Positions 6,636 through 7,193 of a DNA stretch of 64,000 nt are shown piece after piece. A program made the position numbers and the translations under genes. The notes below the pieces were generated by a model. It worked only from the letters and a program-made list of their open reading frames with translations. It ran no database searches and was not told the origin of the DNA. Position 1 is the stretch's first letter, and every line of letters begins with the position of its first letter. The stretch covers positions 607 through 64,606 of the forward strand of contig JAKSBP010000285.1 in NCBI GenBank assembly GCA_022361035.1, given 5' to 3'. The stretch is from Clostridia bacterium (GTDB lineage: Bacteria; Bacillota; Clostridia; Peptostreptococcales; Caminicellaceae).

Positions 6636-6666
6636 CTAATCATCCTTCCATATCTTGAAATTAAAA

Positions 6667-6691
6667 CAAAGTTATCTATGATATCCTTTGC
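6667..6691. repeat. Left copy of the 25-nt hairpin direct repeat flanking A1
   Basis: caaagttatctatgatatcctttgc, repeated as caaaggtatctatgatatcctttgc at 6844..6868. On the minus strand this copy is followed by TTTTAATTT. Confidence 0.8.
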
Positions 6692-6843
6692 CAGATTGTA
6701 GACAAAGGCTACAAGATGACAGGCTTCCCCGAAACCTGAAGTTCGAGGCGTGCTAAAACCGAGAGGCCGCAGCGTATAAAGAAATACGTAAGGGTTCTTG
6801 GTTTTAGCAACAACGAAGAAATTCGGGTTTTCGGGTAGCCTGA
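6692..6843 (+). repeat. Family-A structured element, copy 1 (short hairpin P1 plus ~120-nt hairpin P2)
   Basis: Its 94-nt core (6736..6829) differs from copy 2 at 4 positions. P1 is gtag/ctac. The P2 base pairs caggct..cccgaaa with tttcggg..agcctg. It is GC-enriched relative to its surroundings. Confidence 0.8.
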
Positions 6844-6868
6844 CAAAGGTATCTATGATATCCTTTGC
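6844..6868. repeat. Right copy of the 25-nt hairpin direct repeat flanking A1
   Basis: 24 of 25 positions identical to 6667..6691. Self-complementary (caaagg..cctttg with inner tatc/gata). Confidence 0.8.
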
Positions 6869-6991
6869 TAAATTAAGACCTATAATTAAAATCTAAGTCC
6901 CTAATCATGATTAAGCTTCTTCAGTTTTTTCCATTACACCTATATTAATTGCCCAAAAACAATATATTTATAACTCCATTATAAATATAAA

Positions 6992-7013
6992 GGGATTAGG
7001 TTCACCTAATCCT
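6992..7013. repeat. Left copy of the 22-nt hairpin direct repeat flanking A2
   Basis: gggattaggttcacctaatcct against gggattaggagaacctaatcct at 7165..7186. The stems are identical and the loops differ. On the minus strand it is followed by TTTATATTTAT. Confidence 0.8.
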
Positions 7014-7164
7014 TAGATTGTTGATAAAGTCAACAAAATGATAGGCTTTTGACAAATCTGAAGTTCGAGGCGTGCTGAAACCGAGAGGCCGCAGCGTATA
7101 AAGAAATACGTAAGGGTTCTCGGTTAAAGCAACAACGAAGAAATTCGGGTTTGTCAAAAGCCTC
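7014..7164 (+). repeat. Family-A structured element, copy 2
   Basis: Core at 7058..7151. P1 is gttga/tcaac. The P2 base pairs aggcttttgacaaa with tttgtcaaaagcct (14 bp). Same orientation as copy 1. Confidence 0.8.
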
Positions 7165-7186
7165 GGGATTAGGAGAACCTAATCCT
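7165..7186. repeat. Right copy of the 22-nt hairpin direct repeat flanking A2 (8 nt downstream of the KH-protein stop)
   Basis: ggattagg/cctaatcc 8-bp stem, directly downstream of the KH gene on the minus strand. Confidence 0.8.
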
Positions 7187-7193
7187 TTCATAT

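Follow-up and report, generated by a model that had tools for sequence, protein, structure and literature searches.

The window analysed here is a stretch of 64,000 nt from a metagenome-assembled Clostridia bacterium of the family Caminicellaceae (contig JAKSBP010000285.1, positions 607 to 64,606 of the forward strand). Its list of open reading frames (ORFs) showed an operon on the minus strand with the order ffh, rpsP, KH-protein gene, rimM, trmD and rplS, and these gene assignments match the annotation of an identical contig (L004; loci fetched for comparison carry L numbers). The KH-protein gene and rimM are separated by a gap of 558 nt (6636-7193) that holds two same-orientation copies of a 151-nt structured element, each lying between directly repeated copies of a hairpin peculiar to its locus (26 nt for copy 1, 22 nt for copy 2). 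The only ORFs in the gap are of 45-53 amino acids (aa), and copies 1 and 2 do not have them in the same frame. This agrees with an initial reading made from the letters alone (the sequence-only reading), which had seen no credible ORF there, and a small-peptide gene was rejected since the reading frames differ between the copies. The same reading had found the copies to be richer in GC than their surroundings; the GC content was 0.48 for copy 1 and 0.42 for copy 2, while the remainder of the gap had 0.29 and the window 0.32. Complete copies were placed with a covariance model (CM) built from the family of elements described below, the element corresponding to model positions 1-151. The features of the locus are as follows.

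6126..6635, minus strand: rimM, the downstream neighbour, with a GTG start; the product is 100% identical to P0001 (named RimM), and Pfam RimM/PRC domains are found in L004
6666..6691, unstranded: target-site duplicate of copy 1, hairpin ACAAAGTTATCTATGATATCCTTTGC; direct repeat with its partner at 6843-6868
6692..6842, plus strand: copy 1 of the probable MITE (miniature transposable element with inverted repeats), 151 nt; CM score 169.9 bits, positions 1-151; hairpin P1 at 6692-6718 and hairpin P2 at 6720-6842
6843..6868, unstranded: target-site duplicate of copy 1, hairpin ACAAAGGTATCTATGATATCCTTTGC; direct repeat D2; the target-site duplication (TSD) is identical at 25 of 26 positions and exactly abuts the element end
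6869..6991, unstranded: native AT-rich intergenic spacer between both insertions; GC 0.26-0.28, no CM or repeat match
6992..7013, unstranded: second copy of the KH-terminator hairpin, GGGATTAGGTTCACCTAATCCT; direct repeat; terminator-like site on the minus strand at 7012-6993
7014..7164, plus strand: copy 2 of the probable MITE, 151 nt; CM score 172.4 bits, positions 1-151; P1 at 7014-7040 and P2 at 7042-7164
7165..7186, unstranded: target-site duplicate of copy 2 on the KH-gene side, hairpin GGGATTAGGAGAACCTAATCCT; direct repeat D4; TSD identical at 19 of 22 positions; dG -11.5
7194..7424, minus strand: gene for a KH-domain (KhpA-type) protein, the upstream neighbour in the direction of the operon; an ORF, annotated as a 76-aa PF13083 gene in L004

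The two 151-nt copies are 84% identical, and a repeat search of the window aligned 138 nt at 88% identity between them. Copy 1 starts with CAGATTGTAGAC and finishes with GTAGCCTG. The 94-nt cores (6736-6829 and 7058-7151) had been said to differ at four positions, and a recount gave exactly four (6755, 6799, 6804 and 6805); a 35-nt core pattern occurred twice in the window and not once in 100 shuffles. The fold proposed from the letters, a short P1 and a long P2, was recovered with z-scores of -9.5 (copy 1) and -13.5 (copy 2), and the swaps of P1 and of the P2 base between the copies are present. The earlier limits were right for copy 2 (7014..7164) and one nucleotide too long for copy 1, which the covariance model ends at 6842 and not at 6843. 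That description was also incomplete, since it overlooked the hairpin duplications flanking each copy (6666-6691/6843-6868 and 6992-7013/7165-7186). The hairpin at 7165-7186 is terminator-like on the plus strand and is the ortholog of the single hairpin found after the KH gene in relatives. Its second copy, at 6992-7013, keeps a T-rich tail on the minus strand and can therefore be regarded as the retained terminator or attenuator. An apparent reverse-complement relation between the loops of the two copy-2 hairpins was rejected, as it failed in other copies; the duplications are direct.

The KH-gene hairpin, AAAAGGATTAGG-nnnn-CCTAATCCTTTT, is doubled around copy 2 of the window and single in four relatives, namely Wukongibacter baidiensis, Wukongibacter sp. 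M2B1 and two metagenomic relatives (AAAAGGATTAGGnnnnCCTAATCCTTTT in L005, L006/L007 and L009). Reciprocally, AACACCTnnnnnnAAGGTGTT, the terminator that follows a radical-SAM gene, occurs once in the contig of the window, in L006 and in L009 (Wukongibacter sp. M2B1), but stands on both sides of a diverged element copy in W. baidiensis. These two reciprocal empty sites show that the copies are insertions. The elements thus present the features by which MITEs are recognised: 151 nt without coding capacity, terminal inverted repeats, TSDs at the exact ends, dispersal, and presence/absence polymorphism.

The same comparison alters the idea that the elements split the operon. In the relatives (the RimM of the window is 71% identical to that of W. 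baidiensis) the space between the KH gene and rimM is non-coding, contains a terminator-like hairpin after the KH gene and already measures 176-253 nt; the insertions are therefore not the cause of the split. When the two elements and one copy of each hairpin are subtracted, the gap of the window shrinks to ~208 nt, and with the insertions removed from the count the length of the spacer (6869-6991) fits the gaps of the relatives. Two MITE insertions would account for the 558-nt gap in an otherwise compact and conserved operon. The stem sequence of the KH-gene hairpin AAAAGGATTAGGnnnnCCTAATCCTTTT is conserved across genera (L005 9801-9840, L006 9780-9820, L009 9748-9790; window 6992-7013), which suggests a terminator or attenuator inside the operon, separating rpsP-KH from rimM-trmD-rplS. 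This lineage has no ylqD-like gene.

About 50 further copies were found across three genomes and two metagenome sets. As the sequence-only reading had proposed, the element is a genuine structured family and not a decaying repeat. In a scan of one genome per species, the exact core pattern was present in only two genomes, those of W. baidiensis and Wukongibacter sp. M2B1; a looser pattern gave 41 real loci in two metagenome/whole-genome shotgun sets. When copies were compared together with their flanks, nearly all had a common anatomy: a locus-specific hairpin, the element, and a second copy of that hairpin. Measured from fixed anchor points, 37 of the 45 copies had a direct repeat abutting the element, of 10-40 nt (median 24). 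In most of them the offsets were 0 at both ends, that is, the repeat stops at position 1 and resumes after position 151. The duplicated repeats are unrelated in sequence, and 34 of the 37 fold as hairpins (z < -2 relative to shuffles). Copies lacking the standard duplication were 5'-truncated, rearranged or indel-bearing. The exact ends in the duplication-bearing copies are CAGATTGT...AGCCTG. The two ends (CAGATTGTTGACAAAG... and ...GTTTGTCAACAGCCTG) form an imperfect 15-bp terminal inverted repeat: in the main subfamily 13 of 15 positions agree between the 5' end (CAGATTGTTGACAAA) and the reverse-complemented 3' end (CAGGCTGTTGACAAA), while the match is weaker in copies with a swapped P2 base. 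Both neighbouring genes were co-oriented with the element in 16 cases and both opposite in 14; they converged in eight and diverged in none, which is the pattern expected of terminator regions. The flanks are A-rich or T-rich, as is typical of terminators. At L020 2274-2606 there is a tandem array of the form hairpin-MITE-hairpin-MITE-hairpin, for which the simplest account is that a second element entered one of the two hairpins produced by the first insertion.

Both ends of the element match those of insertion sequences (ISs) of the IS1182 family. The copy of ISCbo5 on p3BKT015925 (L052 35706-37318), found as an unannotated ORF, has the ends CAGGCTGTTGATAAAC...AACAATCTG and is bracketed by a 30-bp hairpin duplication. 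Its transposase scored 472.2 bits with NF033551, the NCBIfam model of IS1182 transposases (cutoff 270). A homologue search identified an intact 486-aa transposase in Wukongibacter sp. M2B1 (P0240) with 63% identity to the ISCbo5 protein, an NF033551 score of 455.5 bits against the same cutoff, and the Pfam domains DUF772, DDE_Tnp_1 and DDE_Tnp_1_6. The IS of Wukongibacter sp. M2B1 (L055 1388-2960; 1573 bp) has the ends CAGACTGTTGACAAAGT and GGTTTGTCAGCAATCTG. Compared with a MITE copy of the same genome (L003), 16 of 17 nt match at each end, and on the 3' side the similarity extends over ~38 nt, spanning the last transposase codons (GLSAI-stop vs GLSAV-stop). In copy 2 of the window the IS-type terminal repeats lie at 7014-7029 and 7149-7164. 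The sequence-only reading had recognised no IS end in the element and had said that its view would fall if the element cleanly matched the end of some known IS, MITE or intron; such a match to IS1182-family ends is present on both sides. Because both ends match IS ends, the two repeats of the window are very probably 151-bp non-autonomous transposons, MITEs whose ends derive from an IS1182-family IS of the ISCbo5/ISCno1 type. The fetched loci (458 kb) were searched for solo ends, end pairs 1-4 kb apart and multi-copy ORFs, and no autonomous element bounded by the ends of the MITE was detected. A blastn search of plasmid and phage collections with copy 2 found no match, and three pattern scans of viral contigs gave 0 matches. 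A frameshifted IS1182-family transposase was observed at L030 2989-4553 (minus strand), with NF033551 scores of 252 and 101 bits for its two halves; the ends of this IS (TTTTTGTA...) differ from the MITE ends, and it lies between two hairpin copies (GGGGCTGTCTCAC...GTGAGACAGCCCC).

The closest known systems are compared below. ISs of the ISCbo5/ISCno1/ISBma2 type (Clostridium botulinum group III, C. novyi) and the homologue of Wukongibacter sp. M2B1 have common ends, CAG(A/G)(C/T)TGTTGA(C/T)AAA, on both sides. Every insertion site of ISCbo5 but one is a hairpin at a gene end (PMC3098183), and, as in the p3BKT015925 copy mentioned above, the hairpin can be found on both sides of the IS. These ISs, however, are of ~1.6 kb, while the elements of the window have 151 bp and no transposase gene, contain a ~90-nt middle that is absent from the IS, and have each end prolonged so that it forms a perfect terminal hairpin (P1 and the P2 base). 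IS1272 and TnSha1, members of the IS1182 family in staphylococci, also insert into terminator hairpins, in either orientation and with no specificity for sequence (PMC4923244), the target being, as here, an inverted repeat of any sequence. Their insertion deletes the hairpin, in part or entirely, without duplication (PMC4923244; PMC5678879), whereas the MITEs of the window duplicate the whole of it. The published cruciform model also foresees that the entire stem-loop would be duplicated if joining took place at the 5' feet (PMC5678879); the outcome seen in the window corresponds to this 'pathway b', which was proposed but is undocumented for IS1272. MITEPye1, an IS1182-derived MITE of Paracoccus yeei, is likewise non-autonomous and intergenic, with IS1182-type terminal inverted repeats and a long stem-loop (PMC11578231). 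It differs in having 4-bp direct repeats (PMC11578231) and no reported hairpin targeting, in belonging to another phylum and in its unrelated sequence. REP/BIME, SPRITE and other terminator-like repeats are also small, intergenic, hairpin-forming and multi-copy. In those, however, the hairpin is the repeat itself, whereas the hairpins flanking the elements of the window are locus-specific host sequences with the repeat between them. Hairpin targeting by the IS1182 family and one IS1182-derived MITE, MITEPye1, are thus already on record.

A mechanism can be proposed in which an IS1182-family DDE transposase, produced elsewhere in the genome, would mobilise the MITE in trans. The transposase would select its target by shape and not by sequence, recognising an inverted repeat able to form a stem-loop or cruciform; in practice, this would be a hairpin that resembles an intrinsic terminator and lies where a gene ends. 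The ends of the element would be joined to both strands, at the stem's feet or close to them, and gap repair would then copy the whole hairpin to both sides of the element. In the window, one insertion struck the conserved hairpin that follows the KH-protein gene, and the other a second hairpin ~30 nt upstream of rimM. As the duplicated hairpin leaves each flanking gene its own copy, such insertions would be nearly harmless, and terminator duplication suggests how elements of this kind may colonise essential operons without harm. The ~40 exact-end insertions, together with the two empty sites, make up a natural data set on whole-hairpin duplication of the IS1182 type. They show that a complete terminator stem-loop, whatever its sequence or length, can be duplicated by such a system, earlier only a hypothetical pathway of the cruciform model. 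A short, defined family and an intact candidate transposase also offer a substrate for studying structure-directed target choice.

The fold of the elements was analysed in 35 full-length copies, in which the consensus structure assigns positions 1-27 to P1 and 29-151 to P2. For the copies of the window the plus strand gave -88 and -103 kcal/mol and the minus strand -75.5 and -89, both strands folding far better than shuffles. Across the 35 copies, 96.8% of the cells are paired and 11 pairs have changed on both sides; none of 500 shuffles reached the observed covariation, and slid controls were far lower. The compensatory change announced from two copies was thus borne out. The covarying parts are P1, the P2 base and the inner helix. 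The compensated stems P1 and P2 base are the two ends of the element, each paired with an internal inverted copy of itself. Within P2, a core of ~90 nt is nearly invariant across genera, with fixed G.U pairs and the invariant internal loops GAGGCGUGCU and AGCAACAACGAAGAAAUUC, and more distant families have the same internal-loop motif; in some copies, the core contains an alternative apical module of equal length.

Several of these observations, and some others, do not sit easily with a MITE made simply of two IS1182 ends. The right end has diverged from the left-end repeat in many copies, and yet the P2 pairing is kept, so that the ability of each end to form a hairpin seems more important than the identity of the ends. 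G.T pairs outnumber A.C pairs (162 vs 19, or 56 vs 18 without the ancestral G.T columns), and the plus strand folds better in all 35 copies, with RNA and DNA parameters alike, which hints at a constraint on one single strand. The pair counts are of cells and not of independent events, and in DNA palindromes templated (quasi-palindrome) correction can mimic compensation; for these two reasons, the one-strand constraint is suggestive only. The ~90-nt middle of P2 has no counterpart in ISCbo5 or in the IS of Wukongibacter sp. M2B1, and its conservation exceeds that of the terminal stems, something that a model of two IS ends alone does not predict. The copy of the Wukongibacter sp. M2B1 IS that was examined has different hairpins on each side (L055 1338-1387 and 2961-3000) and no clean duplication; this could reflect hairpin replacement, as in IS1272, or recombination between copies. 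Finally, the 64 kb of the source genome covered by the window hold no other MITE copy or IS end. Descent from an IS1182-family IS leaves the conservation of the non-IS core unaccounted for. It is conceivable, if rather unlikely, that the ~90-nt apical core of P2 is a functional single-stranded module (RNA or folded plus-strand DNA) carried by the MITE; it may then be a structure that binds the transposase or controls transposition, or an RNA used by the host or by the element. The proposal of an RNA or a single-stranded-DNA hairpin survives in part: the element does not behave as an RNA gene or as a regulator of the operon, but selection may act on a single-stranded fold of the plus strand in the core that does not come from the IS.

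Variants of the element were also observed. In one subfamily the apical ~45 nt of P2 are exchanged for another hairpin of the same length (...GAGTAGCGGAGCTTGCTAGAGCTGCAAGTGAGCAACGGAG...), the ends and the flanking internal loops being kept. Its members are:

L025, L027, L028, L029, L035, L047 107-257, L049, L050 2189-2339 and L012 3456-3606

A more distant family of the same architecture is found at L001 437-586 and L012 9181-9325. It has in common the motifs GAAGTTCAAGG and AACGCAGAAATTCG, with other terminal stems and another apical domain, and shows no obvious hairpin duplication. At L034 1304-1367, a 64-nt derivative consists of P1 and the P2 base only, the core being wholly deleted; the element ends can thus persist without the core.

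The strong folds, the covariation in P1, the P2 base and the inner helix, the excess of G.U over A.C pairs, the better folding of the plus strand in 35 of 35 copies and the invariant internal loops would all be expected of a structured RNA without coding function, whether a cis-regulator or an sRNA gene, that had been duplicated in the rpsP-KH-rimM-trmD-rplS operon and selected for its RNA fold. Against this, the element occurs in either orientation at about 50 unrelated intergenic sites, and both of its copies here are antisense to the operon, whose genes lie on the minus strand while the better-folding strand of the elements is the plus strand. It is also polymorphic for presence or absence, its insertions come with target duplications and its ends are those of an IS; templated correction of palindromes, too, can give apparent compensation. 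Promoter-like sites did not exceed background (10 vs 5.7 ± 2.5 expected) and none was conserved; an internal promoter was rejected, as the TTGACA in P1 is not accompanied by a conserved -10. Nor was there a match to Rfam, which agrees with the earlier statement that the sequence belongs to no named RNA family: Rfam 15 at gathering thresholds gave 0 matches in the window and 10 loci (the best sub-threshold hit scored 24 bits against a gathering value of 100), and at E <= 10 no family was supported in the window. A non-coding RNA of this kind is therefore very unlikely, and the loci should no longer be mistaken for a riboswitch-like RNA of a ribosomal operon.

Transposition systems other than IS1182 were weighed against the same data. 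An element made of little more than two hairpins bounded by termini, with a strand-asymmetric fold, recalls the palindromic elements of the IS200/IS605 type, which would move as single-stranded DNA through a Y1 HUH transposase reading two hairpins on one strand. IS200/IS605 elements insert beside a fixed target of 4-5 nt without duplicating it, whereas the copies studied here have duplications of 10-40 nt and no conserved flanking tetranucleotide, lack an orientation bias with respect to gene direction (16 vs 14), and have ends matching those of an IS that encodes a DDE-type IS1182 transposase; this origin is scarcely credible. The unit formed by an element and its two hairpins, a repeat-insert-repeat, resembles that of CRISPR, L020 carries a hairpin-element-hairpin-element-hairpin array, and duplications of 10-40 nt are within the range of CRISPR repeats, as if a Cas1-type integrase (casposase or CRISPR adaptation) had duplicated palindromic repeats. 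The length of the duplication, however, follows the size of the hairpin and not a fixed molecular ruler, what is inserted never varies, being this one element with IS1182-type ends, none of the loci showed a cas1, and arrays are explained equally well by a second insertion into a duplicated hairpin; the involvement of such an integrase is extremely improbable. Class C group II introns have their homing sites immediately behind terminator hairpins. The association of the elements with terminators could thus point to a degenerate intron fragment of this class, and GAGGCCGCAGCGUAU...AUACGUAAGGGUUC bears a loose likeness to domain V. Practically no probability attaches to such a fragment, since no Intron_gpII match was obtained in Rfam even at E <= 10, the element with its 151 nt is much too short, copies lie in either orientation with respect to the terminator, and target duplication is not a feature of introns. 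A bridge or seek RNA of IS110/IS1111 was rejected as well, the targets here having no common sequence; a TnpB/IscB guide-RNA scaffold and an integron attC site were likewise considered and rejected.

Two other small repeats were noticed near the insertion sites. The first, unrelated to the MITE (~CCCTTCGTTTTGGTCAGATTTCTCTTCGAGAAATGACCTCAATAAA), adjoins it or its hairpins in several JMSU01 contigs, and in L038 stands in place of the MITE P1; it looks like another small element gathering at the same terminator regions. The second is an AT-rich hairpin, AGTAAATATA(C)TTATTTACT, that recurs in similar form behind a TATAAT at three insertion sites unrelated to one another, and may be either a recurrent small palindromic repeat or a favoured target. 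Their positions are:

Short repeat: L015 ~440-490, L017 ~5330-5400, L018 ~2100-2170, L033 ~3880-3940 and L038 ~8890-8915
AT-rich hairpin: L002 ~4257-4300, L003 ~1285-1312 and L050 ~2165-2188

The sole other long repeat in the window is a tandem duplication of a gene for an 80-aa acyl-carrier protein (18398-18640 and 18927-19169, minus strand), located between fabG-like and fabF-like genes. The repeat is of 260 nt with 94% identity, its copies are separated by ~270 nt of unique spacer, and the two proteins differ at three residues.

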